A DNA stretch of 64,000 nucleotides from Bacteroidales bacterium. Its GTDB lineage: Bacteria > Bacteroidota > Bacteroidia > Bacteroidales > UBA3663. The translations under genes were made by a program, and so were the position numbers. The stretch lies in the NCBI GenBank assembly GCA_024694125.1, contig JAILKE010000060.1, positions 35,247 to 99,246 on the forward strand. Direction: 5' to 3'. How positions within the stretch are numbered: position 1 is the stretch's first letter; each line of letters opens with the position of its first letter. Positions 5,748-61,577 of this stretch are shown piece after piece. The notes beneath the pieces were generated by a model that saw only the letters and a program-made list of their open reading frames with translations, was not told where the DNA came from and did no database searches.

Positions 5748-5748
5748 A

Positions 5749-5845
5749 ACGAAAAAACTGCGTACGAAAACGAAAAAACTGCGTACGAAAACGAAAGAAC
5801 TTCGTACCAAAACGATAACGAAAACGAAAAAAGCAACGAGAAAAC
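5749..5845 (+). repeat. 21-bp tandem repeat (ACGAAAAAACTGCGTACGAAA)
   Basis: Two perfect units (5749-5769, 5770-5790), one degenerate unit (5791-5811) and an ACGA-rich tail. A reverse-complement relative lies at 27843-27912. Confidence 0.9.
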
Positions 5846-6037: not shown

Positions 6038-6550
6038 ATGAAAAAGTATATTACTACATTAGTATGGGCAATGATGATGACGATACAGACGATGGCTGCG
6101 GACATGCAGTACTACCTTGCCCAAGACAACCAAGCCGATTGCGTGGTCACATCCATGGCCAACGCACACCTAATCTTCTACGGCGACACGCTCGAGGACG
6201 CTGCGCAGATGCGCGAACAGTACAAGTTCATGCACCAATACATCATCGAGGCTGTCGGTGCCAACTTCAGCGGCGTCAAGTACAGCAATATCCGCACGCT
6301 GCTCAAGCACGCGGGCTTCAGTCCCGTGTCGGTCGAATGTACTGACACCATGGGCATGACGACATTGCTCAATCAGGGACGTTTCCTGCTGGGTATGCTC
6401 TACGATGGTGCAGAGGGCCACGCAGTGCGCATTCTCTCGGTCGATGGGGACCTCATCCAATATATGGATTATCTCGCTATGGCCGAAGCCTCCGCCCCCT
6501 GCAAGAAGTTCATGCCTGTAGTGTATGGACTGAAGAAACCGGAATTTTAA
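6038..6550 (+). CDS. secreted papain-fold (C39-like) cysteine peptidase-like protein
   Basis: The signal peptide is MKKYITTLVWAMMMTIQTMAA. There is a Q...C motif (QDNQADCVVTSMANAHLIFYG) and a downstream GHAVRILSVDGDLIQYMD (His/Asp). An alternative upstream ATG is at 6008. Confidence 0.4.
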   Translation: MKKYITTLVWAMMMTIQTMAADMQYYLAQDNQADCVVTSMANAHLIFYGDTLEDAAQMREQYKFMHQYIIEAVGANFSGVKYSNIRTLLKHAGFSPVSVECTDTMGMTTLLNQGRFLLGMLYDGAEGHAVRILSVDGDLIQYMDYLAMAEASAPCKKFMPVVYGLKKPEF

Positions 6551-6745
6551 AGGAAGTGACAAAGAAGTGACAGGGAAGTGACAAAGTACAAAGTGACAAA
6601 GTACAAAGTACAAAGTGACAAAGTTCAAAGAGTGACAAGGACGATAGCATCGACTAATGGAATGCTATCGTCCTCTAATATTCCGATTGGAACTATACTA
6701 TTTCTATCCTCCTCTATGATTTCTATTGAAACTATATGACCGCGT
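6551..6745 (+). repeat. composite intergenic element: AAAGTGAC/AAAGTAC word array + GGACGATAGCAT hairpin + ~9-bp CTAT-periodic array
   Basis: The word array spans 6551-6638, the hairpin 6639-6673, and CTAT recurs at 6693-6735. The same module order recurs at 61441-61577. Confidence 0.85.
6639..6673. terminator. hairpin between convergent genes (likely bidirectional terminator)
   Basis: A 12-bp perfect stem pairs GGACGATAGCAT (6639-6650) with ATGCTATCGTCC (6662-6673), with an 11-nt loop. It lies between the 3' ends of 6038-6550 (+) and 6760-8172 (-). Confidence 0.6.
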
Positions 6746-6759
6746 TTATAGCTCCTCAC

Positions 6760-8172
6760 TTACAGGTTCAATTCGTCCACGGGAATCCTTTCGATATGAT
6801 AATTTTCGAGGTTTTTCTTGGTGATAGGGATATAGAGCAGGATATCGTCGAAAGCCAGATAAATCTTGTCTTCGACATACAAAAGACCGACTTTGCTCTG
6901 CATGTTCATCTGGGCAAAACCATCGTAGCTCGACTTGGGGACCTTGTACATAATCCCCTCTTCATCAGGACCGATATATAGGTGAGTCTGAGTTACAGCA
7001 TATATAAGCGTATAAAATTCATATCTGAAACTATCCTTGTCATTCACCTCCTTGCAGTCGTTCATCCAATGTTCGTACTGCGCGAGCAGAGCGGGGTCTG
7101 TGCATCGGGTCAAGTGCCTCTCCAGTGGCCAATGGGGTGAATTGGAGTCCATGGCACGATCCATGCGCAGTTCATCCGGTCGCAGGTCTGTTGGATCGGA
7201 GAAGTACCAGGCACAGTCATTGTCCCCTGCCGGCACCCCACGAACCAGATGCTTGATGAAAATAGGATGCACCCAATAATACCCCCACACATCCTCGTTC
7301 TCCTTATAGACAAATAGAGTATAGAAGGTACTGACCAATGTATTGTCGGCCTTCTTACTATAGAAAGTAGCGAAGTAATTACCGGTCAACCCTGGGGCTT
7401 CGATTACCCAAAAGTTGGTCGATACCGTATGTCCGTCCCCCTCGACCCATACACCACTGATGTCCAGATCGAACATCTTCTCCTGCATTTCAACAGCCTT
7501 GCGACGCATCGACTCTGGGCCAATAAAATCTTGGTAGACGTCCAATACATGTTGGACATAGTCAATCAGCATGAGGCGAGACTTATCTCCATATTCCCTG
7601 GCGGCCTTGACAGCCGGCAGCATCTCGAAGATAGCCCCGCCGGACGTAAACTGCTCGAAGAAAGACTGCACACGGAAAAAGTCCCGCTCGATGTCAACTA
7701 CATCACCTTCCTTCGAGTCATAGCCAGGCAGTACGCGTAGCAACATCAGCACCAGCATAGGCACATTGAGTTCCTTATCGAGGATCAGCTGATAGGTCTC
7801 CCGTTTGCGGGCGCTCATCTTGGCACGTGCGCTACGTGGGTAGCAGTAATGCAGCATCTCGGTTACCACCGCCTCGGGATTGGCGCGGCGGTACAGGTGT
7901 TCACGGTAGAAAACCCATGTCCGATGGTACTGTCGGAGCAGTTCGTCCAGGTCAATATAGTCCGAGGTCAGTTCAGCCACCTCGCACTTCAGGTCACGGT
8001 AGGCCGAGCGCGAACGCGACAGCGCGCCGAAGCAGCGCTTGATGCCGTTGCTGTGTATCGCCTGGGTGCCGAGCATCTGCTCGATTTCAGCCATTGTATT
8101 GTATATCAATCGAGTATTGACTATCGTAGTCAGTTTATCCTCGTATAAAGTCTTTTCGTCTTTCATTATCAA
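6760..8172 (-). CDS. hypothetical protein (470 aa), no recognisable motifs
   Basis: Long intact ORF with no signal peptide and no motif I can place. Confidence 0.6.
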   Translation of the reverse strand: MIMKDEKTLYEDKLTTIVNTRLIYNTMAEIEQMLGTQAIHSNGIKRCFGALSRSRSAYRDLKCEVAELTSDYIDLDELLRQYHRTWVFYREHLYRRANPEAVVTEMLHYCYPRSARAKMSARKRETYQLILDKELNVPMLVLMLLRVLPGYDSKEGDVVDIERDFFRVQSFFEQFTSGGAIFEMLPAVKAAREYGDKSRLMLIDYVQHVLDVYQDFIGPESMRRKAVEMQEKMFDLDISGVWVEGDGHTVSTNFWVIEAPGLTGNYFATFYSKKADNTLVSTFYTLFVYKENEDVWGYYWVHPIFIKHLVRGVPAGDNDCAWYFSDPTDLRPDELRMDRAMDSNSPHWPLERHLTRCTDPALLAQYEHWMNDCKEVNDKDSFRYEFYTLIYAVTQTHLYIGPDEEGIMYKVPKSSYDGFAQMNMQSKVGLLYVEDKIYLAFDDILLYIPITKKNLENYHIERIPVDELNL

Positions 8173-8189
8173 TCACAATATTGACTATT

Positions 8190-8222
8190 CAAGTTTCGCA
8201 AGTCTTCAACTTACGAAACTTG
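8190..8222. repeat. hairpin of the CAAGTTTCGCAAGT family
   Basis: CAAGTTTCGCAAGT (8190-8203), loop CTTCA, ACTTACGAAACTTG (8209-8222), with one mismatch. It lies just downstream of the AraC gene stop. Relatives are at 13614, 48410, 59646 and 59814. Confidence 0.8.
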
Positions 8223-8234
8223 CTTAAAACAACA

Positions 8235-11312: not shown

Positions 11313-13360
11313 AAAAGATACTATTTTCGGCCGCAATGCTCGTCATGTCGGCATCGGCCATAGCACAGACACTCAATGTACAGGTGGGCAACGTCACCTA
11401 TCAGTTTCCCGCTGCCCAGACAGGACAGATGACCTACACCGACGGCACATCGCTCTCCATCATGGGCAAGACATTCACATTGAGCGAGGTATCGGGTATG
11501 ACGATCGATGACAGCACGGTCAACGACGACTCGGTCAGCGTAGTGTATAACGGTACATCGGCCACAGTTACCGTGAGCGGCAACATAGCCCAGTACCTGA
11601 CCATCACGCAGAGCGGCGCCCACGTCAGCATCGTACAGAGCGACGACGTGGCCAGCGAGATCACCTACCAGCTGCAAGGCAACACGACGGACGGCGGCTT
11701 CTACACCGAGGGCTCGTACAAGGCAACCGTGGTGCTCAATGGATTGACCCTGACCAACACATCAGCCACCTACAGCGGAGCCGCACTGCACGTGCAGAAC
11801 GGCAAGCGCATCAAGATCAAGACCGTCGAGGGTACGACCAATACGCTGGTCGATGCAGCCGACGGTTCGCAGAAGGGCTGCATCTATGTCAAGGGCCATG
11901 CAGAGTTTGCCCAGAAGGGCACGCTGAACGTGACCGGACAGGTCAAGCACGGTATCAAGACCGGCGAGTACATGTCGCTCAAGAAGACGACACTCAATAT
12001 CCTGTCAGCTGCCAGCGACGGCATCAACTGCGCCCAGTACCTACTCGTGGAGAGCGGCTCCATCACCATCAGTGAGTCCGGCGATGACGGCATCCAGTGC
12101 GACATAGACGATACCGACGTCGGTTCCACCGGCGAGACGACCGACCACGAGGACGAGGACAGTGGCAATATCTACCTCAATGGCGGCACCGTCACCGTAT
12201 CGACCTCGGCCACGGCTGCCAAGGGCGTCAAGGGCGAGGGCAGCATCTACATCACCGATGAGGCGGTCGTCAATGTCACTACCTCCGGCAACGGCGAGTG
12301 GGACAGCGATGACCTGGAGACCAAGGCTGCCTGCGGCGTAAGCAGCGATGCCAACATCTACATCACGGGCGGCACCATCACACTCACCGCCACCGGTTCG
12401 GGTGGCAAGGGATTGAAGTGCGACAGCGTGCTCAACATCTCGGGCGGCACCATGACCATAGTCACCTCAGGCGGTCTGTATTACAACAACGGCACCACCG
12501 AGAATACCAACTATACCGGCGATACCGACAATGTAGATAGCGACTACTACTCATCGCCCAAGGGTATCAAAGCGGGCACCAAAACCGAAGTGACCTCAAC
12601 CAGCTACACCTATGCCGGAGCAGTCGTCATCAGCGGCGGTACGATCAATGTCACCACCAGCGGACAGAATGCCGAAGGCATAGAGAGCAAGAATACGTTC
12701 GACGTCACAGGCGGATACATCTACGTCGATGCCCACGACGACGCACTCAATTCGGCTCAAGACATGACCATCTCCGGCGGATACATCTATGCACGTGCTT
12801 CCAGCAATGACGGAATCGATGCCAACGGCAACTGCTACATCTCGGGCGGTCTGATTTATGCCATCGGCGCCACCTCTCCCGAAGTAGCCATCGACGTCAA
12901 CAGCGAAGACTCAAAGCAGCTTTACTTCACGGGCGGAACACTCATTGCCCTGGGAGGTCTCGAGTCAGGAGCCTCGCTCTCGCAGGACTGCTACAGTGCT
13001 GCATCGTGGAGCGCCAACACATGGTATGCCCTGTCAGCAGGTGACCAGGAGATAGCCTTCCTCACTCCTGCCTCGATAGACGGTGCCACACTGGTTGTTT
13101 CAGCAGCCTCCAAACCGACTCTCTACTCGGGTGTAACAGTACAAAGTGGCACAGAAATTTGCAATAGTAAAATTTTTATTGATGTTTCATACAATAAATC
13201 TGATTCTGTCACGTTATCTAATTACACGGGTGGAAATAGCGGCCAAACAGGCGGTGACCAAGGCGGTGACCAAGGCGGCGACCAAGGCGGCGACCAACCG
13301 GGTGGAGATAACAACAATCAGCCAGGCGGTGGAGGTTCTACTCCTGGAGGAGGATTTTAG
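11309..13360 (+). CDS. secreted carbohydrate-binding beta-helix protein (DUF4353/Cthe_2159-like)
   Basis: The start was moved to MKKILFSAAMLVMSASAIAQ. DGI/KG[VIL]K repeats recur (SDGINCAQ, GDDGIQCD, AKGVKGEG, GKGLKCDS, PKGIKAG, AEGIESKN, NDGIDANG). The C-terminal tail is G/D/Q-rich. Confidence 0.7.
   Translation: MKKILFSAAMLVMSASAIAQTLNVQVGNVTYQFPAAQTGQMTYTDGTSLSIMGKTFTLSEVSGMTIDDSTVNDDSVSVVYNGTSATVTVSGNIAQYLTITQSGAHVSIVQSDDVASEITYQLQGNTTDGGFYTEGSYKATVVLNGLTLTNTSATYSGAALHVQNGKRIKIKTVEGTTNTLVDAADGSQKGCIYVKGHAEFAQKGTLNVTGQVKHGIKTGEYMSLKKTTLNILSAASDGINCAQYLLVESGSITISESGDDGIQCDIDDTDVGSTGETTDHEDEDSGNIYLNGGTVTVSTSATAAKGVKGEGSIYITDEAVVNVTTSGNGEWDSDDLETKAACGVSSDANIYITGGTITLTATGSGGKGLKCDSVLNISGGTMTIVTSGGLYYNNGTTENTNYTGDTDNVDSDYYSSPKGIKAGTKTEVTSTSYTYAGAVVISGGTINVTTSGQNAEGIESKNTFDVTGGYIYVDAHDDALNSAQDMTISGGYIYARASSNDGIDANGNCYISGGLIYAIGATSPEVAIDVNSEDSKQLYFTGGTLIALGGLESGASLSQDCYSAASWSANTWYALSAGDQEIAFLTPASIDGATLVVSAASKPTLYSGVTVQSGTEICNSKIFIDVSYNKSDSVTLSNYTGGNSGQTGGDQGGDQGGDQGGDQPGGDNNNQPGGGGSTPGGGF
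13250..13297 (+). repeat. in-frame 12-bp tandem repeat x4 (GGCGG[T/C]GACCAA = GGDQ)
   Basis: Four consecutive units encode GGDQGGDQGGDQGGDQ inside the CDS tail. Confidence 0.95.
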
Positions 13361-13613: not shown

Positions 13614-13662
13614 AAATAATTCAAGTCTCGCAAGTTCAAGACTTGCGAGACTTGAATTATTT
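13614..13662. repeat. 22-bp-stem perfect hairpin (CAAGTCTCGCAAGT family)
   Basis: AAATAATTCAAGTCTCGCAAGT (13614-13635), loop TCAAG, ACTTGCGAGACTTGAATTATTT (13641-13662). It lies between the convergent 3' ends of 11309-13360 (+) and 13702-14610 (-). Confidence 0.9.
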
Positions 13663-13701: not shown

Positions 13702-14610
13702 TTAGTTTGTTTTCTGGCACTGCCACAGCGGCTCCTCCTCCCATCCAAGAGGGAAACCCATCATGGTGGGTTGAACACTGGGATATTTCGTTAGAAGAGA
13801 TTTGAAGTCCTGAACAAAAGTATTCTGAGGATTGATGCTGTTAAGCCAATAGGCAATACAACATAGTTGAGGATAAAGGCGGTCGATAGGGAAATTGAAG
13901 TTTGTTATCCACCGCTGACGCATTCGTGAGGTTATCTTTGGACGCACAGCAAAGTGTGCATTCCAAAGACGTGCATGATGGGCACAATAGTTGCGGACGA
14001 TAGTGAGACTTTCCAACCAACTGCGCAGATACTCATGTTGGGGCATATCGAAATCGCGAGCCACCCGCTTCATCAGATTGAAGTCGTTCATGTTGTTGTA
14101 AAGTTTGGAAAGCGTTCCGAAAGATGCCACTTCAAGTGTTTTCCATGATGGAGGGAACTCGGGTGAATCATATTTCCTGAAGTGTTCCAGAATGAATTCG
14201 TCGCGACAACGTCCTAACTCCGTGCGCAAAGATTCCAGATTTTTATTGTAGCGGTATTCATTGGCAGCAAACGTGGAATCCATAAACCAGAAGGATCCAT
14301 AGGTCATGGCAAAGTGATGGTTTATTTTTGTCCTTGATGCAATCTCAATATGCTGCAGGGCTTTGAATACCAAAGAGCGAAGCTCGCTATCGAAGTTGTA
14401 AAGTGTCAGAACTGACGAGAATCTGCTTCCACTACGAAAACGATGTATGCGGCTGTTCTCTTCCATTACACGCCAATAACTGGCAAGTCGAAAGTAACTA
14501 ATGTGGTTGAGAACGCTCTGTGCTTCGTTCTCATTTTCAATAATAAGCCCTCGCTGTTTCAGTATGTCTATCTGTTCACCGATGGTGATAGGTTGCTTTG
14601 TGTATTCCAT
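13702..14610 (-). CDS. Abi family protein (AbiD/AbiF-like, Abi_2; HEPN superfamily)
   Basis: The N-terminus has QIDILKQRGL...ISYFRLASYW. The signature is IVRNYCAHHARLWN (Rx4-6H). The gene sits in a visibly AT-richer segment. Confidence 0.85.
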   Translation of the reverse strand: MEYTKQPITIGEQIDILKQRGLIIENENEAQSVLNHISYFRLASYWRVMEENSRIHRFRSGSRFSSVLTLYNFDSELRSLVFKALQHIEIASRTKINHHFAMTYGSFWFMDSTFAANEYRYNKNLESLRTELGRCRDEFILEHFRKYDSPEFPPSWKTLEVASFGTLSKLYNNMNDFNLMKRVARDFDMPQHEYLRSWLESLTIVRNYCAHHARLWNAHFAVRPKITSRMRQRWITNFNFPIDRLYPQLCCIAYWLNSINPQNTFVQDFKSLLTKYPSVQPTMMGFPLGWEEEPLWQCQKTN

Positions 14611-20598: not shown

Positions 20599-20669
20599 GA
20601 TAGAAGCTATAGAAACTATAGAAACTATAGAAACTATAGATGCTATAGAAACTATAGAGACTATAGAAA
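20599..20669. repeat. 9-bp tandem array CTATAGAAA x7
   Basis: Units begin at 20607, 20616, 20625, 20634, 20643, 20652 and 20661. Five are perfect and two are variant (CTATAGATG, CTATAGAGA). The array fills the spacer between the M23 gene stop (20672) and the ketoisomerase start (20563). Confidence 0.95.
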
Positions 20670-22898: not shown

Positions 22899-22904
22899 AA
22901 AACA

Positions 22905-23087
22905 ATATTTTAAGGGTTTAAAAGGGTAGGGAAAGGGAGTAAAAAGGATATTAAATGGAGGGAAAAAGATATTAAGGGGAGAGAAAGGGACGTTTGCTGT
23001 TCCTGACTGAAGTTCTCAGAGTATTTTTGTATCGTCCTTGTCACTTCTTTGTCAATTCCTTGTCACTTCCTTGTCACTTCCTTTATA
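22905..23087. repeat. intergenic word arrays: AAGGG/GGGAG words, GGGACG..CGTCC spacer, reverse-complement GTCACTT words
   Basis: taagggtttaaaagggtagggaaagggagtaaaaagg...aggggagagaaaGGGACGtttgctgttcc...tgtatCGTCCttgtcacttctttgtcaattccttgtcacttccttgtcacttcc. The arrays fill the whole spacer between the TPR stop and the DUF4292 start. Confidence 0.85.
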
Positions 23088-24839
23088 TTATTCTTTTGTC
23101 TCCAACGACTCGGGCAACGGTTCGCCAAGTGCCTCGAGGATAGCCTTGTAGTGCTTGACCAGTTCCTCGCTGGGGTGGCCCTCGGAGCGGTCCATGGCGC
23201 GCTGCTGGTAGAATTTGGCCAGCATGTAGTTACCCTGCTTGTAGTATATCCAGGCATAGGTATCGAGGTAGGTCGGCTCGTCGGGGAACTTCTGCACCAC
23301 TTTCGCCACCATGCTCTCGGCCTTCATCAGGTCGCCGCCCTCCTCGCACAGGAAGTAGGCATAGTTGTTGAGCACCACATAATTGAGGTTGTTGTAGCGC
23401 AGAGCCAGGTCATAGTACTCGTAGCACCGCACCGTGTCACCCATCTCGTGGTACAGGTCACCCATCATGCCATAGATGTGCGATTGGAAGTTGGCATCCT
23501 TGGCATCGGTTGCGGTGAGGGCTTCGCGGTAAGCCGCCATGGCACTGTCGTTCTGATGGCGCTGCACATAGACGAAGGCGCGGGTCAGGTAGATCTCCTT
23601 GAGCTGGGGATGACGTGCCTGCGCCTGGGCTGCCAACTGCATCACGCGGTCCAGGTCTCCAGCCGCTGCAGCATAGCCGAGCGCCTTGCCCCAGTACTTG
23701 GTCTCGGATGGTTTGAGATCGACCGCAAAGAGTATCTGCGCCATGGCTGCACTGTCCTGACCGATGGCTGCCAGATATTCGGCATGCAGGTCATAGACCT
23801 CGGCGGCGGTAGGGTGCATGGTCGATACGGTCACGAAGAGGCTGTCCACACCCGGCAGTGATATGGCTGTGGAGTCCGATGCTTCGGCCTTCTCCTTCGA
23901 CACCTTTTCAATCGTATTCTTGAGGTACTCAGTGAGCATCTCGATCTTGGTCGATATGTCGAGGTTGGCATTGACCAGGGCGCAGTGCACGAGCGAGTCA
24001 GCCGCCTGCTGATTGCCGGTGATGCTGTAGTAGTTGGAGAGCGCCAACCACACATAGGCGTCATTCGGGTCGAGGGCAGCTGCCTGGTCGTAGGTCTTCT
24101 TGGCCTGCGGTATCATGCCCGACTTCATCTGCAGGTCGCCCAGCTGCAGGCGGTACGAGATGTCGTAGGGGTGACGGGCTATCAGCTTGTCGTACTCGGC
24201 AAAAGCCTCATCGACCATACCCCGTTCGCGCAACACGTAGAACTTCTGCAATGTCAGGTTCGGGTTGGGACCATCTATCTCCTCGATGTGCTGCAGGGCG
24301 TCGAAGCAGTCCCGGAGGCTGTCCATACGCACATAGATGTCCGCCAGACTGTAGTAGGAGTCGCTCTTGGTGGGATGCAGGCGGGTGATGCGGCGGAAAC
24401 AGTCGATGGCCTTGTCGTACATGTTGCTACGGCGATACAGGTTACCCAGCAGGTCACTGTACCAGAAGTTGGTCGAATCGACCTGCACGGCCACCTCCAG
24501 GTCGTGGATGCAGGAGCGCATCCACTCATCGCGGTACTGGCTCAATATCCCTCCCAACGAGGCATACATCAGTCGGCCACGCATATAACGTGCCGGCGCC
24601 GAGAGGCTGTCCACCTCCAGTGCCTCGTTCAGACGGTTGACTGCCTCGCCGCCGCGGTCCTGCATGCTGAGCGACACCGCCTCAAAGTAGAGCGAGTCGA
24701 ACGCCAGGCGCTGCTGGTCAGTCAGCACCAGCGGCTGCATCTCGGTCTGTACCTTCTTATGCCGACGGGCGTACAGCGACTGTGGCTGCAACATCAGCGG
24801 GACGAGGGTGAGCAGTATGTAATACAATACACGTGTCAT
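23088..24839 (-). CDS. tetratricopeptide repeat protein
   Basis: Signal/anchor N-terminus, with many TPR-like A..Y..AL repeats throughout the 583 aa. Confidence 0.8.
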   Translation of the reverse strand: MTRVLYYILLTLVPLMLQPQSLYARRHKKVQTEMQPLVLTDQQRLAFDSLYFEAVSLSMQDRGGEAVNRLNEALEVDSLSAPARYMRGRLMYASLGGILSQYRDEWMRSCIHDLEVAVQVDSTNFWYSDLLGNLYRRSNMYDKAIDCFRRITRLHPTKSDSYYSLADIYVRMDSLRDCFDALQHIEEIDGPNPNLTLQKFYVLRERGMVDEAFAEYDKLIARHPYDISYRLQLGDLQMKSGMIPQAKKTYDQAAALDPNDAYVWLALSNYYSITGNQQAADSLVHCALVNANLDISTKIEMLTEYLKNTIEKVSKEKAEASDSTAISLPGVDSLFVTVSTMHPTAAEVYDLHAEYLAAIGQDSAAMAQILFAVDLKPSETKYWGKALGYAAAAGDLDRVMQLAAQAQARHPQLKEIYLTRAFVYVQRHQNDSAMAAYREALTATDAKDANFQSHIYGMMGDLYHEMGDTVRCYEYYDLALRYNNLNYVVLNNYAYFLCEEGGDLMKAESMVAKVVQKFPDEPTYLDTYAWIYYKQGNYMLAKFYQQRAMDRSEGHPSEELVKHYKAILEALGEPLPESLETKE

Positions 24840-27332: not shown

Positions 27333-27391
27333 CCTGCCGACGTCGTTTCACTCTCTCCGTACAATATCCCTTTCGATGAGGGTACTTTCAT

Positions 27392-27495
27392 AGTGCGATT
27401 GGTGTGCGATTGAAATGCGATCGGTGTGCGATCGGTCATCCCTACCCTATCGTACACGAAGCGCTATCCCATCGCGAAGCGAGTGCACTCGGGAG
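27392..27495 (+). repeat. dispersed GTGCGATTGG-repeat element, copy A
   Basis: agtgcgattggtgtgcgattgaaatgcgatcggtgtgcgatcggtcatccctaccctatcgtacac... is near-identical by eye to 55661-55727. Both copies start about 60 nt after the stop of a plus-strand gene. Confidence 0.9.
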
Positions 27496-27598
27496 ACGAT
27501 ATGAGAGTCATGAAAGAGTCTTTTAAGGGAAGATAAAGGGTCATTAAAGGGGAGTGAAAAGGTAGTAAAAGGGACGTTTGATACTACCATTGGACTTT

Positions 27599-27842: not shown

Positions 27843-27912
27843 TCACTTTTTTTCGTTATCGTTATCGTTTTTGTACGAAGTTTCTTCGTTTTTGTACGAA
27901 GTTTTTGTTTTT
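27843..27912 (-). repeat. 21-bp repeat family (reverse complement of the 5749-5845 family)
   Basis: cgttatcgttatcgtttttgtacgaagtttcttcgtttttgtacgaagtttttg is the reverse complement of ACTTCGTACAAAAACGAAGAA units. It abuts the ATG at 27913. Confidence 0.85.
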
Positions 27913-28875
27913 ATGTTCTGGCATATACTTGCATTACTCACAGCATGCATATGGGGCTCGACCTTCGCAGCCAGCAGCCTGCTGATAAGGGCGGGACTCA
28001 CCCCAGCCGAAATAATGTGTCTGCGATTCATCATCGCCTATCTACTGATGTTGCCCTTCGAACTGCGGGGCATGATACAGCGTGCACGGGCGCACCGATT
28101 CAGTGACCGCGCAGCACTGTGGATGACCATCAGGGACGAGGGACTGTTCGTGCTGCTGGGCCTGACAGGTGGCTCGCTCTACTTCCTGAGCGAGAACTAC
28201 GCCGTGAAGTTGACCAACTTCACATCGACCGTAGCTCTCATCGTGTGCACCTGTCCGATATGGACAGCATTGCTCAACCGCCTGATATGGCGCAGCGAAC
28301 ACATCACCAACCGATTCATATTCGGCTCCGTAACGGCAGTGGCTGGCGTCACGCTGGTGGTGCTGAATGGCGTCTTTGTGCTCGATGACAATCCCTGGGT
28401 GATACTGCTCAGCTTCGGCGCTGCCCTGATGTGGGCGATATACAGTCTGATACTCAAAGTCCTGGACCGCCGATATTCCAGCGCCGTCATCACGCGCAAG
28501 GTCTTCTGGTGGGGCGTATTGACCATGCTGCCCGTGGTGTGCATCGAGGCTCGCATGGGCGAGAGCCAACTGTGGAACCTGACGGACCACGCTGCTGCAT
28601 GGGGCGAGAGCCTGTTCAACCTCGACCTGATTACCCAACCCGAGGTGTGGGTGACGCTCCTGTTCCTGTCGCTGATAGCCTCGCTGGGCTGCTTCCTGAC
28701 CTGGAACATCGTATGCAAGCGCCTCTCCATCGTTACCGCAAGCAACTACCTGTACTTCAACCCCGTAACCTCGCTCTGGATGGGTGCCATCCTGCTGGGC
28801 GAACAGGTGACTTGGCCCGCTCTGATAGGCTGCGCCGTCACCATAGCAGGAGTATATTTGTGTAATAGGAAGTGA
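27913..28875 (+). CDS. EamA/DMT family transporter
   Basis: About ten TM segments. The N-terminus is MFWHILALLTACIWGSTFAAS. The start was moved downstream of the repeat array (the ORF-track start 27871 lies inside the repeat). Confidence 0.8.
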   Translation: MFWHILALLTACIWGSTFAASSLLIRAGLTPAEIMCLRFIIAYLLMLPFELRGMIQRARAHRFSDRAALWMTIRDEGLFVLLGLTGGSLYFLSENYAVKLTNFTSTVALIVCTCPIWTALLNRLIWRSEHITNRFIFGSVTAVAGVTLVVLNGVFVLDDNPWVILLSFGAALMWAIYSLILKVLDRRYSSAVITRKVFWWGVLTMLPVVCIEARMGESQLWNLTDHAAAWGESLFNLDLITQPEVWVTLLFLSLIASLGCFLTWNIVCKRLSIVTASNYLYFNPVTSLWMGAILLGEQVTWPALIGCAVTIAGVYLCNRK

Positions 28876-28940
28876 CAAAGTACAAAGTGACAAAGTACAA
28901 AGTACAAAGTACAAAGTGACAAAGTACAAAGTGACAAGGA
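28868..28940 (+). repeat. AAAGTGAC/AAAGTAC word array
   Basis: aggaagtgac aaagtac aaagtgac aaagtac aaagtac aaagtac aaagtgac aaagtac aaagtgac aagg. The array begins inside the last codons of the transporter gene, and the stop TGA (28873-28875) is part of the first word. Confidence 0.95.
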
Positions 28941-29016
28941 CGAATGATGCTACTAAACGAATGTTGCCACTAAACGAATGTTGCTACTATCTGAAATTTT
29001 CAACAGGAATTTGTAT

Positions 29017-29075
29017 TGTCCTTCTCTCTCCATTTTCTCTCCTTTTCCCCTCCCCTAAATATCCTTTTCTTTACG
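29017..29075 (-). repeat. reverse-complement GGGAG/AAAGG word array
   Basis: gtccttctctctccattttctctccttttcccctcccctaaatatccttttctttac is the reverse complement of the GGGGAGGGGAAAAGGAGAGAAAATGGAGAGAGAAGGAC family. Confidence 0.7.
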
Positions 29076-33557: not shown

Positions 33558-33980
33558 ATGAATCCAGTAGTTATCGACACAAATTGTCTGCTGCAGATTA
33601 TAGCCCGCCAAAGTCCCTATCGTCCGATATGGGACGCTTTCATTGCGGGCCAATATGAACTGTGTGTATCGAATGAGATTCTTGAGGAGTATCAGGAGAT
33701 TCTGGCGCAACAAATAACGCCCTCCATAGCGGAGAATATCGTTTTGCTTATTTTGAATAAAGAGAACGTAAGATTCGTTGACCCTCATTTCCGCATGATG
33801 ATTATTACGGCAGACCCGGATGACAACAAGTTCGTCGATTGTGCCTTTGCTGCTGGAGCGGATTATCTGGTAACGGAGGACAACCATTTCAATGTGCTGC
33901 ACTCCACTCCTTTTCCCCAGTTGAACCTTGTCACTCTGGACGAGTTTATGCGGACAAGAATCATAAATGGCAATTTGTGA
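33558..33980 (+). CDS. PIN-domain toxin (PIN_3-like putative RNase)
   Basis: The N-terminal VVIDTNCLLQ carries the first acidic residue. ILEEYQEIL, DPDDNKFVDCA and YLVTEDNHF are typical of PIN_3 toxins. Confidence 0.8.
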   Translation: MNPVVIDTNCLLQIIARQSPYRPIWDAFIAGQYELCVSNEILEEYQEILAQQITPSIAENIVLLILNKENVRFVDPHFRMMIITADPDDNKFVDCAFAAGADYLVTEDNHFNVLHSTPFPQLNLVTLDEFMRTRIINGNL

Positions 33981-42541: not shown

Positions 42542-42759
42542 GCGTATTTTTAAAGTAAGACCAGCCATAGTGCAGCGTAAGACCAGCGTAAGTGAAAAGT
42601 CTTACTCTTGTCTTACGCTGAACTTATGCAGACCCATCCCATCGCCCCCGTTGTCCGATACCCCAAGGTACCCCGATGCAAGGGATTCGTCTCCTTATTT
42701 TGGGGGCCGATAGCCAGGGCAGCCCCTTGTACCATCATTGTTATTTTGTTCAATAGATA

Positions 42760-42829
42760 CGTCCTTGGTCCCTTTGTACTTTGTACCTTGTCACTTTGTA
42801 CTTGGTCCTCTGTCCCTTTGTCACTTACC
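42760..42829 (-). repeat. reverse-complement AAAGTGAC/AAAGTAC word array
   Basis: CGTCCttggtccctttgtactttgtaccttgtcactttgtacttggtcctctgtccctttgtcactt ends 3 nt before the ATG at 42833. Confidence 0.9.
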
Positions 42830-42832
42830 ATC

Positions 42833-43525
42833 ATGTTGATTCTCATCCCCGATTCATGCACAGGGCCCGACATAACGGCGGGCATCAATTACGCCAACGC
42901 CGTGATGCGCGCTGGCCACACCCCCATGGTATTGCCCCACACCGATGACCCCGAAACGATATGCCGGGCGATGACCCAGGCGGACGGACTGCTGCTGCCA
43001 GGCGGCGAAGATGATGTCGCGCCCTGGCACTATGGCGAGAGTCCATTGCCCGAGATTGGTCCCGTCAACGAACGGCGCGACGCCTTCGAGATGGCACTGC
43101 TGCGCCAGGCAGCCGCACAGCGCAAACCCGTACTGGGCATATGTCGCGGCATTCAGGTCATCAATGCCTGCTTCGGCGGCAGCCTGTGGCAAGACCTGCC
43201 TACCCAGATGCCCCACAGCGACATCGAGCACAACCGCCCCGATGCCAAGTGGAGCGGCGTGCACGACATCGACATCGAACCACAATCGCGCCTGGCCCAC
43301 ATACTGGGCGTCACCCATGCGTCGGTCAACAGCACGCACCACCAGGCGGTACATTGTCCCGCTCCCGGCTTCGTCACATCGGCCCACAGCGCCGACGGAG
43401 TAGTCGAGGCAATCGAGCACACCGAGCTGCCCATCATCGGCGTACAGTTCCACCCCGAGCGTTTAGCTACCGGCGACGACACGGTATTCACCCGTCTGTT
43501 CCAGATGAATTTCGGCCAACATTGA
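42833..43525 (+). CDS. gamma-glutamyl-GABA hydrolase-like class I glutamine amidotransferase (peptidase C26)
   Basis: PVLGICRGIQVIN (nucleophile Cys elbow) and GVQFHPE. The start was moved to MLILIP downstream of the repeat array. Confidence 0.85.
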   Translation: MLILIPDSCTGPDITAGINYANAVMRAGHTPMVLPHTDDPETICRAMTQADGLLLPGGEDDVAPWHYGESPLPEIGPVNERRDAFEMALLRQAAAQRKPVLGICRGIQVINACFGGSLWQDLPTQMPHSDIEHNRPDAKWSGVHDIDIEPQSRLAHILGVTHASVNSTHHQAVHCPAPGFVTSAHSADGVVEAIEHTELPIIGVQFHPERLATGDDTVFTRLFQMNFGQH

Positions 43526-48083: not shown

Positions 48084-48262
48084 GGCCCTCACATCGGCCC
48101 ACTATACCACAGTAAAACTGCTAAACTGCAATCGATACACCATTAACTGCGACAACGACAAGTAACTGTACTACGAGAGATGACAAGACGACTGAATCCC
48201 AACAACTGCATTTTACTGTACAACAGCTGAAGCGACTGACCATCAGTTACGGCATTCATCAT

Positions 48263-48346
48263 ACCACAAGGTGCACATGGCACCAAAAGGCACACATCGT
48301 ACCACAAGGTGCACATGGTACCAAAAGGCACACATAGTACCACAAC
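48263..48346 (+). repeat. 38-bp tandem duplication (2.2 copies)
   Basis: accacaaggtgcacatggcaccaaaaggcacacatcgt (48263-48300) is repeated at 48301-48338 with three mismatches, followed by a partial third copy. Confidence 0.9.
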
Positions 48347-48404: not shown

Positions 48405-48409
48405 ATATA

Positions 48410-48453
48410 CAAGTTTCGCAAGTCTTCAACTTGCGCACTTTACTATCGAAGGG
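48410..48453 (+). repeat. CAAGTTTCGCAAGTCTTCAACTTGC-family element (one arm only)
   Basis: caagtttcgcaagtcttcaacttgcgcactttactatcgaaggg closely matches 59646-59690. It lies directly downstream of the stop of 48456-49208 (-). Confidence 0.8.
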
Positions 48454-53671: not shown

Positions 53672-53721
53672 TAGATTTCAGCAATAGTTATCGGAGTTAC
53701 TCAGCAAGATAACTGGAGTTA

Positions 53722-53761
53722 ACGGACGATACACCTTCCTATGTATCGTCCGTTTATTATT
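53722..53761 (+). terminator. Rho-independent terminator (GGACGATA..TATCGTCC stem)
   Basis: An 11-bp perfect stem pairs ACGGACGATAC (53722-53732) with GTATCGTCCGT (53743-53753). It is followed by TTATTATT. Confidence 0.75.
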
Positions 53762-53781
53762 GCCTTAATACCACACGCGAC

Positions 53782-55602: not shown

Positions 55603-55660
55603 GCGGGTCTGCCATATCAGCAATATTGTACAATAACCCTATCGCTGGCGTATCGTTCAG

Positions 55661-55747
55661 AGTGCGATTGGTGTGCGATTGGAATGCGATTGGTGTGCGA
55701 TTGGTCATCCCTATCGGATCGTACACTAAGCGCACTCCGACCGGGAG
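55661..55747 (+). repeat. dispersed GTGCGATTGG-repeat element, copy B
   Basis: agtgcgattggtgtgcgattggaatgcgattggtgtgcgattggtcatccctatcggatcgtacac... is a paralog of 27392-27495. Confidence 0.9.
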
Positions 55748-55816
55748 CCGACAGGACTTAGTCCGGAATCAGATAATAGGGACACAGAGGTCCGAAAGTC
55801 AAACGGGCGAAAACGA

Positions 55817-59560: not shown

Positions 59561-59592
59561 AGGAATATAGGAGGGAGTTTACAGAAGGTATA

Positions 59593-59640
59593 AAGGAGTT
59601 ATAAGGGAGTCAGTTGGAATTGACTCCCTTCAACTCCTTA
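59593..59640. other. nested 8+8-bp hairpin
   Basis: AAGGAGTT-ATAA-GGGAGTCA-GTTGGAAT-TGACTCCC-TTCA-AACTCCTT. Confidence 0.8.
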
Positions 59641-59857
59641 TTGATTAGTTTCGCAAGTCTTCAACTTGCTCACTTTCAGTAAAGAAGGGGAGTGAAAGGG
59701 GAGTGAAAAGGGAGTGAAAGGGACGTTTACTGTTACCAGCGGGAGCCTTCAGGGATTGATTGTATCGTCCCTTTCTCTCCCCTTTTACTACTTTTTTTAG
59801 CCTTTCCCTACTCTCAACTGAAGCTTGCGAAAGTTGAGTTATTGATTAGTTCCGCAC
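59638..59857. mobile_element. MITE-like ~200-bp imperfect palindromic element flanked by direct repeats
   Basis: The direct repeats are TTATTGATTAGTTTCGCA (59638-59655) and TTATTGATTAGTTCCGCA (59839-59856). The ends are inverted (GTTTCGCAAGTCTTCAACTTG vs reverse complement CTTTCGCAAGCTTCAGTTG). The inner arms are GGGAGTGAAA words and their reverse complement, closing on AAAGGGACG (59718-59726) / CGTCCCTTT (59766-59774). Confidence 0.55.
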
Positions 59858-59868
59858 GGGCGAAACCA

Positions 59869-61440: not shown

Positions 61441-61577
61441 TGTTAAAGGGAATTTAAAGGAAGTGACAGGGAAGTGACAAGGAAGTGACAGGGACGATAG
61501 AATCGGCTATTGAGCTCTATTGCTTCTATAGCGTCTATAGCAACTATAGCGTCTATAGCTTCTATTGACCTATAGCC
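61441..61577 (+). repeat. composite intergenic element (AAGGG words + AAGTGACA words + GGACGATAG hairpin + 9-bp CTATAGC array)
   Basis: aggaagtgacagggaagtgacaaggaagtgacagGGACGatagaatcgg...ttctatagcgtc. CTAT then recurs every ~9 bp from 61507 to 61573. The element is co-linear with 6551-6745. Confidence 0.85.

Follow-up and report, generated by a model that had tools for sequence, protein, structure and literature searches.

Tandem repeats scattered through bacterial intergenic DNA have been described in several forms. Long simple sequence repeats (LSSR) were reported by Mrazek and colleagues (2007), and as later summarised (PMC4679880) they include the heptamer arrays of cyanobacteria, of the short tandemly repeated repetitive (STRR) type, and the TAACTGA arrays of Beggiatoaceae, Cyanobacteria and some Bacteroidetes. 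BrickBuilt and PgRS/464 are miniature transposable elements with inverted repeats (MITEs) of Porphyromonas gingivalis (PMC4596501), and BrickBuilt, a MITE that carries a minisatellite, is the closest precedent among Bacteroidales. Here we analyse a 64,000-nucleotide stretch of a Bacteroidales genome (assembly GCA_024694125.1, contig JAILKE010000060.1, positions 35,247 to 99,246; hereafter the window), in which arrays of short AAGTGAC-type units stand at five gene junctions; the array starting at 28868 is the feature under study. The arrays are real, and the main proposal of an initial annotation of the window, that they form a dispersed, intergenic and rapidly rearranging repeat family, is right, being borne out by insertions and deletions (indels) of whole units within and between species. 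They form the purine-rich side of a recurrent composite layout and represent a variant of repeat DNA of kinds already known in bacteria, with no demonstrated function.

The arrays resemble LSSR, as portrayed in that summary, in their tandem units of 5-11 nt, their mostly intergenic and phylogenetically sporadic occurrence and their frequent position next to start or stop codons, as well as in unit-sized indels between strains and in the shorter, repeat-free spacers of syntenic relatives. They differ from LSSR in being mostly of period 11 instead of 7, in having TTAARGG and RGGACG bounds, in serving as arms of composite elements, and in being copied between loci. Cyanobacterial STRR arrays are heptamers of filamentous cyanobacteria, whereas the unit here is an 11-mer and the host belongs to Bacteroidales; the Nostoc matches of our genome scan are a separate GACAAGT/GACAAAG heptamer family. 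With BrickBuilt the family shares a Bacteroidales host, strictly intergenic positions, tens of non-coding copies, restriction to one or a few species, and a minisatellite of imperfect units and variable copy number. The BrickBuilt array, however, is central, between a leader and a tail with terminal repeats of the type of the insertion sequence (IS) IS5, whereas here the arrays are outer and the unique part is central. As is typical of MITEs, there are many non-coding intergenic copies shorter than about 1 kb, namely five AAGTGAC arms and further related arms in 64 kb. In contrast to MITEs, no IS-like terminal repeat was recognised; the outer TTAARGG...CCYTTAA is inverted in some copies. No target-site duplication was found in comparisons with relatives too diverged for exact boundaries, and no transposase was present among the 30 window proteins scanned, which include housekeeping and defence proteins. 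The claim that this is not a described repeat class therefore holds for the sequence family, for which there is no Rfam family and a text search for the sequence gave unrelated papers only, but not for the general kind, as LSSR, heptamer arrays and minisatellite MITEs are known.

The five arrays occupy 6551-6638 and 28868-28940 on the plus strand, 61456-61490 on the plus strand, and 23035-23087 and 42764-42829 as reverse complements. They are referred to as loci 1 (6551), 2 (28868), 3 (61456), 4 (23035), and 5 (42764). The word AAGTGACA occurs 18 times in the window against 2.0 expected, with 17 of the 18 copies inside the five arrays, and a three-unit pattern has seven matches in the window and none in 100 shuffles. 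The arrays exceed what base composition predicts, because none of the 100 shuffles reaches the observed counts. The expected enrichment of the words in intergenic DNA was found in the window, where, on a gene map of open reading frames (ORFs) and Pfam matches, AAGTGAC is 20 times and AAAGTGAC 53 times denser per base than in coding DNA. Of the intergenic bases, 12.7% belong to tandem arrays of one kind or another, and of the coding bases 0.19%. The periods given by Tandem Repeats Finder for the five loci are 7, 11, 15, and 22, in keeping with head-to-tail units of 1-11 nt. As the window comes from a metagenome-assembled genome (MAG) and repeats are prone to mis-assembly, we considered that the arrays might be artefacts of short-read assembly, an explanation to which we give almost no credence. 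In the sister species (L099, L100, L144-L146), which is ~90-95% identical to the window in nucleotide sequence and has arrays at all shared junctions, the arrays at loci 2 and 4 are identical in two independent assemblies and that at locus 5 in three. The same arrays were thus obtained from independent samples and assemblers (L099 and L100; L144, L145 and L146), arrays are also present in a third assembly set, from a second species, and their length of 70-115 nt is below the span of a read pair.

The basic unit is the 11-mer AAGTGAC-A-RR-G, usually present in 3-4 and at most ~10 copies per arm, and an arm usually has (T)TTAARGG at its gene-side boundary and RGGACG at its inner one. The arrays had been said to consist of just two words, here abbreviated as S (AAAGTAC) and L (AAAGTGAC). 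Such 7/8-mers do occur, but 11-mers (AAGTGACARRG) make up loci 3 and 4 as well as the first 36 nt of locus 1, which switches from 11-mers to 7/8-mers inside one array. On inspection, AAAGTGAC looks like the 11-mer AAAG-AAG-TGAC minus one AAG, and AAAGTAC like that 8-mer minus a G. The first 43 nt of loci 1 and 2 are the same (GGAAGTGAC-S-L-S-S); beyond them, the two arrays are distinguished by an extra S, a single substitution, and a single small insertion. The S-L-S-S block is also present at locus 5. Loci 1, 2, and 5 have a common unit order and are therefore copies of one another. This order, together with 7/8-mers that look like deletion derivatives of the 11-mer, speaks against the suggested two-letter code of varying word order. 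An RGGACG terminus (AAGGACG or AGGGACG), absent from the initial annotation, ends all five arrays, four of which fit ACA(A/G)GGACGW, and TTAAAGG starts three of the five. Both boundary motifs are over-represented in the window (RGGACGWWWR, 11 copies against 2.5 expected; TTAARGGRAG, 5 against 0.17).

Across the related loci that were fetched there are ~58 non-redundant arms. The unit and arm statistics come mostly from motif-selected loci and describe the family, not its genome-wide frequency: in 54 non-redundant arrays with 237 units, conservation is at least 93% at positions 1-6, 8, and 11 of the unit, A and G share positions 9 and 10 in proportions of roughly 55-60% to 40-45%, and position 7 is C or A at 80:20. 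When the arms are anchored at GGACG, the nearest two or three units are well conserved and conservation falls off farther out. Three or four units are found in 38 of the 54 arrays, and adjacent units are identical in 13% of cases, compared with 12-15% in shuffled arrays. Period 11 is the commonest among all tandem arrays of the window, the sister species, and the second species, and occurs in none of the 28 arrays of the next relatives.

Reading of whole spacers revealed a recurrent layout on the top strand, in which a purine-rich arm is followed by RGGACG, a short unique core, often CGTCC, and a pyrimidine-rich arm. Examples are 22899-23087, 28868-29057, 59685-59815, 61456-61565, and 6551-6745. 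The pyrimidine-rich arm consists of reverse-complemented AAGTGAC units or of other families, namely CTCCCCTT and TCTATAGCG in the window and GATTATTCCGA, CATTCGTCC or AACCCTTAAACGTT in relatives. The elements and their parts in the window are listed below.

6551-6638, plus strand: purine arm of locus 1, three 11-mers (6551-6586), then S-L-S-S-L-S'-L'
6639-6673: core hairpin of locus 1, GGACGATAGCAT, 11-nt loop, ATGCTATCGTCC; 12-bp stem, z-score -2.4
6674-6745: pyrimidine-rich tail of locus 1
28868-28942, plus strand: purine arm of locus 2, GGAAGTGAC-S-L-S-S-S-L-S-L, with AAGGACG at its end
28940-29010, plus strand: core of locus 2, with the 17-nt repeat ACGAATGTTGCTACTAA x2.9 at 28940-28989
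29011-29057, plus strand: pyrimidine arm of locus 2, TTGTAT-TGTCC, then CTCTCC/CTTTTCC repeats (family D6)
61456-61496, plus strand: arm of locus 3, TTTAAAGG, 3 x AAGTGACARRG, GGGACG end
61516-61565, plus strand: partner array of locus 3, TCTATAGCG x5.6, reverse complement of the ATAGAAACT family at 20600-20669 (pair I6)
23033-23087, minus strand: arm of locus 4, reading TAA-TAT-AAAGG, 4 x 11-mers, AAGGACG on the minus strand, directly after the TPR stop
22899-23032, plus strand: partner of locus 4, ~21-nt AAAGGGAG purine units, GGGACG at 22987-22992
42759-42829, minus strand: arm of locus 5, degenerate 7/8-mers in S-L-S-S order, ending 3 nt before the Peptidase_C26 ATG
42542-42758, plus strand: rest of the 291-bp M15 to C26 spacer, GTAAGACCAGC 11-mer array, hairpin, and unique structured sequence
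59685-59815, plus strand: related element, AAGGGGAGTGA x3.5 purine arm, GGGACG, core, CGTCCC, pyrimidine arm (family D3)
27514-27576, plus strand: related purine arm, AAGGGGAGTGA/AAAAGGTAGTA units, GGGACGTTTG end (family D3)
20600-20669, plus strand: array at the M23 to FdtA junction, ATAGAAACT x7.8

The repeat tool's family D3 joins the AAGGGGAGTGA arms (27536, 59685) with AAGTGAC arms (61456, 6538). The core of locus 2 is conserved in the sister species despite its differing arm, and in the partner of locus 4, GGGACG is followed by a 40-nt core, GGGACGTTTGCTG...TTGTAT-CGTCC. The unique part of 42542-42758 has, by eye, a degree of conservation in the sister species similar to that of the coding DNA around it, and this segment folds well (z-score -3.6, with a perfect stem of 11 bp, CAGCGTAAGAC...GTCTTACGCTG); it may represent a structured RNA or terminator gained along with the arrays.

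The excess of purines in the left over the right part is 0.27-0.52 in the spacers of the five arrays, 0.22 in 53672-53781 and in 59561-59868, just 0.06 in the array-bearing M23 to FdtA spacer, and about zero in other spacers. Thus, the five strongest of the seven array-bearing spacers scored run from purine to pyrimidine on both strands. Such a polarity on both strands follows from palindrome-like composition, which makes trailers purine-rich and leaders pyrimidine-rich for any gene arrangement. The sequence downstream of 57 arms is pyrimidine-rich in 35 cases and purine-rich in three; CGTCC occurs within 160 nt of 16 of these arms, and a reverse-complementary partner arm of the same family accompanies 13. 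The elements resemble repetitive extragenic palindromic (REP) sequences, bacterial interspersed mosaic elements (BIMEs), and Correia elements in their dispersal, their palindrome-like character, their intergenic location, often next to a stop codon on its downstream side or between convergent genes, and their occurrence in both orientations; mosaic modules and concerted evolution within a genome are further common features. Those elements, however, are single palindromes of 20-150 nt, whereas the present ones have arms of tandem units with GGACG...CGTCC pairing in only the 16 arms just mentioned. REP sequences are defined by a GTAG head and a RAYT transposase (as 20-40-nt imperfect palindromes), and Correia elements by a TA duplication and an integration host factor (IHF) site.

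We then compared the arrays between genomes. Between the window and the sister species, 8 or 9 of the 11 indels of at least 7 bp in 15.6 kb lie in repeat-built spacers, mostly as whole-unit steps, and over a further 13.8 kb the real indels of at least 7 bp are array units only (51, 8, and 76 nt). The 76-nt indel is a 38-nt x2.3 tandem duplication at 48257-48345, which is single-copy in the sister species (L144, ~15416); it is recent and occurred in place. Between the rumen MAG RUG12191 and metagenome contigs (96% identity), nearly all indels of at least 9 bp are repeat units, and two strains with identical HflX are one 12-nt unit apart. At locus 2, the window and the sister species have the start TAATAGGAAGTGAC and the core in common, and the arms are 7/8-mers in the window versus 11-mers in the sister species; at locus 5, 7/8-mers are found in both. 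A higher-order block, GGAAGTGACAAGGAAGrTTTTAAAGGAAGTGAC, is common to loci 2 and 4 of the sister species. Arrays are thus closer to other loci of their own genome than to their orthologues, which is a signature of ectopic copying (gene conversion). Separately, a ~66-nt hairpin sequence (TCCTCGCAGCGAACAGAAC...GTTCAGCGAGAAGACGAGG...) lies within AAGTGAC arms of RUG12191 loci (L013 ~2006-2075, L059 ~1812-1880) and is missing from the orthologous arm in L128; it looks like a small mobile insertion targeting arms.

The next relatives, L101, L102, and L103, have HflX proteins 94, 90, and 87% identical to that of the window (that of Candidatus Liminaster caballi being 90% identical) and DNA ~70-81% identical. 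At the junctions shared with the window they have no arrays and short spacers. The three junctions that could be compared are as follows.

TPR to DUF4292 spacer: window 189 bp, sister species 227 bp, L101 32 bp, L102 77 bp, L103 119 bp
M23 to FdtA spacer: window 108 bp, sister species 90 bp, L101 15 bp, L102 15 bp, L103 59 bp
M15 to C26 spacer: window 291 bp, sister species 340 bp, L101 61 bp; ATGA gene overlap in the second species (L118/L134)

A metagenome scan for two units plus GGACG gave 38 loci, nearly all from a single assembly set. These loci are conspecific with RUG12191 (95-97% identity), which is also the top genome by frequency in the genome scan, and represent the second species. 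It has the same arm, both boundary motifs, and the same layout, at junctions other than those of the window; with its coding DNA, blastn yields no match to the window, and orthologous proteins are only 67-93% identical. Since the M15 to C26 junction has 291 bp and array 5 in the window versus an ATGA overlap in the second species, elements have been gained at junctions, in different places in each lineage. Arrays of the AAAGTGAC/AAAGTAAC type occur in many phyla, with Bacteroidota prominent, in a genome scan whose pattern itself forced that word. A purine-then-pyrimidine foldback is uncommon outside this lineage, as only 5 of 86 loci of other genomes have at least two reverse-complement motifs downstream. 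Octamer arrays of AAAGTGAC/AAAGTAAC followed by their reverse complement were seen in Prolixibacteraceae, Acidobacteriota, and another Bacteroidota MAG (L074 72-260, L029, L006), and L074 has a near-perfect foldback with TGCACGGTGTAAAA...TTTTTACACCGTGCA bounds. Related lineages carry distinct intergenic arrays of their own (TTACTCC, TTCCTCT, TCTAAGT), and on the Candidatus Liminaster caballi contig L102 a 42-nt x12.5 tandem array lies at 11487-12057, downstream of hflX.

The contacts between arrays and gene ends are largely as the initial annotation had them. At locus 1, the TAA stop at 6548-6550 is directly followed by AGGAAGTGAC, and at locus 2, the TGA stop of the EamA ORF (28873-28875) falls within the first array unit. 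The array start provides the last three codons and the stop of this ORF (28861-28875, AAT AGG AAG TGA), as it does in the sister species. At locus 4, position 23088 marks the stop-codon edge of the TPR gene, on the minus strand, and the ATG at 42833 starts the Peptidase_C26 gene at locus 5. The array assigned to 61459, claimed to follow an upstream stop in plus orientation, actually lies between two minus-strand genes, antisense to both and 34 nt from the DUF4876 start codon. Hence, at loci 1, 2, and 4 the AAGTGAC arm follows a stop codon and is in sense orientation; at loci 3 and 5 it precedes a start codon and is antisense. In the second species, arms whose reverse complement adjoins a start codon are about as many as stop-adjacent ones, by a visual estimate made because automatic ORF calling gave ambiguous results. 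One of the elements has a promoter-like TAtcTTTG motif on one side and an ATG on the other, and probably sits in a 5' leader; the promoter-like TAtcTTTG motif of TauE lies downstream of the pyrimidine arm of locus 2. The genes next to the arrays are ordinary ones (HflX, EamA, TauE, TPR, peptidases).

The reading we favour, with about even confidence, is that the arrays are the purine arms of lineage-specific, composite, non-coding intergenic repeats that are prone to slippage, ectopically copied, and selfish or neutral, with no function shown. The elements would have been gained at gene junctions in the ancestor of the two sister species, with a related set at other junctions in the second species. 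Whole units would then be gained and lost by slipped-strand mispairing or unequal exchange, as the indel patterns suggest, and ectopic copying by gene conversion would homogenise arrays across the loci of one genome, with the shared boundary motifs providing the homology. The elements would be tolerated in 3' trailers, 5' leaders, and operon junctions, and their main effect would be to lengthen and separate transcription and translation units; we infer that they have no dedicated function from negative evidence. Several points weigh against this reading. Its neutrality is deduced from absent signals, and the statistics on units and arms derive mostly from loci chosen by motif. The pattern of 8 conserved and 3 free positions in 54 arrays from three species, with a period of one helical turn, suggests a sequence-specific constraint, for example a protein-binding site, rather than drift. 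Neighbouring units are no more identical than shuffled ones, whereas simple recent slippage would make them more so. In addition, no exact filled/empty boundary, target-site duplication, or source element was found in the compared genomes; array-free junctions occur only in relatives too diverged for exact boundaries, and the outer-edge TTAA is palindromic and also present inside 22-nt unit variants.

Alternatively, the arms may be iteron-like arrays for the binding of a protein with sequence specificity, for example a transposase, recombinase or protein of nucleoid or partition type, with the elements being foldback- or MITE-like ends or remnants, or chromosomal organising sites; we regard this as rather unlikely. 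The predicted target would be double-stranded (AAGTGACAAGG)3. The 11-bp period with its fixed and free positions fits such a role, as do the typical 3-4 units per arm with definite outer and inner boundaries, the reverse-complementary partner across a short core in 13 of the 57 arms, and an orientation unlinked to transcription direction; period 11 also prevails in the other array families of these genomes and is lacking in the next relatives, and the junctions that carry arms differ between species. In foldback (FB) transposons, which are eukaryotic and kilobase-sized, inverted arms of variable short tandem repeats surround a short loop, and an element-encoded protein can mobilise them. The partner arms recall FB elements, but most of them come from a different family here, and only one of the four elements folded is an arm-to-arm hairpin. 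At parC of plasmid R1, two blocks of five 11-bp direct repeats flank a core at a single plasmid locus with a known binding protein. The elements are like parC in the 11-bp period, the few copies on each side of a short core, and the conserved versus free positions; they differ in that the arms are inverted and stand at many chromosomal junctions, and arms of 7/8-mers would break the phase of a putative iteron. Three of the five window arms now have such 7/8-nt units, off the 11-bp phase and with GTGAC partly lost, which has not kept them from persisting and being copied. The arms are mostly paired with unrelated families, unlike the ends of an element served by a single transposase, and the lack of a transposase among the 30 window proteins, of a resolved target-site duplication, and of a plasmid or phage match also tells against a mobile origin of this type. 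A more specific version, in which the 11-bp units are predicted protein sites in helical phase that point inward to RGGACG and the elements are a bacterial counterpart of foldback transposons or new chromosomal organising sites that spread across gene junctions and split operon genes once overlapping or closely set, is in our estimate unlikely.

The arms might also act in cis at the RNA level, as landing pads for an RNA-binding protein, ribosome or Rho that tune stability, translation or polarity. They adjoin stop and start codons, are unstructured, and give purine-rich trailers and pyrimidine-rich leaders in any gene arrangement, and such a role has been proposed for TAACTGA heptamer arrays just upstream of start codons. 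The pyrimidine arms contain little G and have periodic YC dinucleotides, and in this they presumably resemble Rho loading sites. We nevertheless think an RNA-level role distinctly unlikely. The AAGTGAC motif is sense at three loci and antisense at two, and relatives split, by eye, about half and half between stop- and start-adjacent arms; this independence from transcription direction argues against an RNA-level role of the motif itself and against the RNA-binding landing pad that had been suggested. The purine-to-pyrimidine polarity is automatic for a palindrome-like element and carries no gene-specific information, unit type and number differ between sister species at the same housekeeping gene, and the next relatives do with spacers of 15-32 bp at two junctions and the second species with a gene overlap at a third. 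Transcription termination had been another suggestion, and the elements can be pictured as expanded bidirectional intrinsic terminators made of an A-rich arm, a GGACG...CGTCC hairpin, and a T-rich arm, with the matching polarity. A scan of bases 1-60,000 found 50 terminator sites, including the plain GGACGATACA...TGTATCGTCC hairpin with a T-run at 53721-53754, and there are the 12-bp GGACGATAGCAT stem of locus 1 and the long hairpin at 59680-59815. The sites found by the scan are ordinary terminators elsewhere, however, and none was flagged at the four arrays in range (locus 3 lies outside it). With unstructured arms, a CGTCC partner within 160 nt in so few of the arms, most stems only 5-6 bp long over 30-60 nt loops without a T-run, and some elements within operons whose genes overlap or abut in relatives, termination is very improbable. 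Finally, purely local micro- or minisatellite expansion by slippage would make the likeness among loci a product of shared mutational bias. De novo tandem duplication is active, as in the 38-nt x2.3 repeat at 48257-48345 that is single-copy in the sister species, many unrelated unit families are present, related lineages have their own arrays (TTACTCC, TCTAAGT), similar AAAGTRAC arrays occur across many phyla, and scattered genomes are known to develop long simple sequence repeats of 5-11 nt. Shared bias would hardly account for the 43 identical nt, irregular unit order, and both boundary motifs common to loci 1 and 2, for the higher-order block of the sister's loci 2 and 4, or for the recurrence of TTAARGG and RGGACG in the second species despite its divergence; nor are neighbouring units preferentially identical. 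The partial evidence points to arms clustering by genome rather than by orthologous locus, counter to the local model, which we consider quite doubtful.

Several other identities were rejected. A long arm-to-arm RNA hairpin is not general: only 59680-59815 (z-score -3.7, one long hairpin) and the core of locus 1 (-2.4) beat shuffles among the four elements folded, and the AAGTGAC-armed elements at loci 4 and 2 fold no better than shuffles (z-scores -0.8 and +1.0, respectively). A search of the window against Rfam 15 gave only tRNA at gathering score, and the extra matches at E-values up to 1 were chance ones of plant miRNA hairpins to the 59680-59800 hairpin. A plasmid or phage origin was dismissed, as the elements had no BLAST match in plasmid and phage collections and two pattern matches in viral contigs were unrelated repeats. 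The units are head-to-tail without spacers, unlike a CRISPR array. Mimicry of the Shine-Dalgarno (SD) or anti-SD sequence by AAAGGAAGTGA, compared with what we take to be the complement of the 16S 3' tail, was set aside on account of the unit itself, whose conserved part is AAGTGAC-A and whose GGA-like part is the variable RR linker. An inverton bounded by GGACG/CGTCC was rejected because no pair of strains or species differs in the orientation of orthologous cores, and genes are not cargo between inverted arms, since gene order is kept in relatives without arms. The resemblance to DNA uptake sequences is loose only.

Bacterial genomes are usually compact, whereas ~13% of the intergenic DNA here is tandem arrays. 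In conserved housekeeping neighbourhoods, junctions of 15-77 bp in the next relatives, or of a 4-bp overlap in the second species, are now 100-340 bp long and built of repeats. In uncultured gut Bacteroidales, the family offers a natural setting in which to study slippage, ectopic gene conversion, and how operons tolerate insertions. The hypervariable arms can serve as metagenomic strain markers and are likely break points of short-read assemblies. If the 11-bp unit were a protein-binding site, the family would point to a new mobile element or a DNA-organising system.

Other features of the window were also inspected. A 131-nt dispersed element has two copies, 27359-27489 and 55628-55758, that are 79% identical; it is conserved in the sister species and folds no better than shuffles (z-score -1.05). 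In each copy there are four GTGCGATTGGT 11-mers, the third of which is a variant common to both copies, and the copies come shortly after the stop codons of HflX and of a GH141-like gene. Hairpins of a REP-like family, CAAGTTTCGCAAGTCTTCAACTTGCGAAACTTG, occupy four intergenic regions in both orientations (8186-8224, 13618-13656, 48406-48444, and 59641-59679). The 21-nt array AACGAAAAAACTGCGTACGAA and its reverse complement are found at 5748-5832 and 27848-27912, with 59 nt that are 90% complementary, and the 27848-27912 copy lies just upstream of the EamA start codon. Genes for AbiEi antitoxin-like, Abi_2, and PIN-domain proteins lie at 1123-2106, 13702-14610, and 33558-33980, and the window's left 14 kb has the look of an accessory or defence-related region. 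The gene at 6760-8172, which adjoins locus 1, has homologues outside the source MAG that are at most 47% identical, and for this reason locus 1 is without an orthologous comparison.

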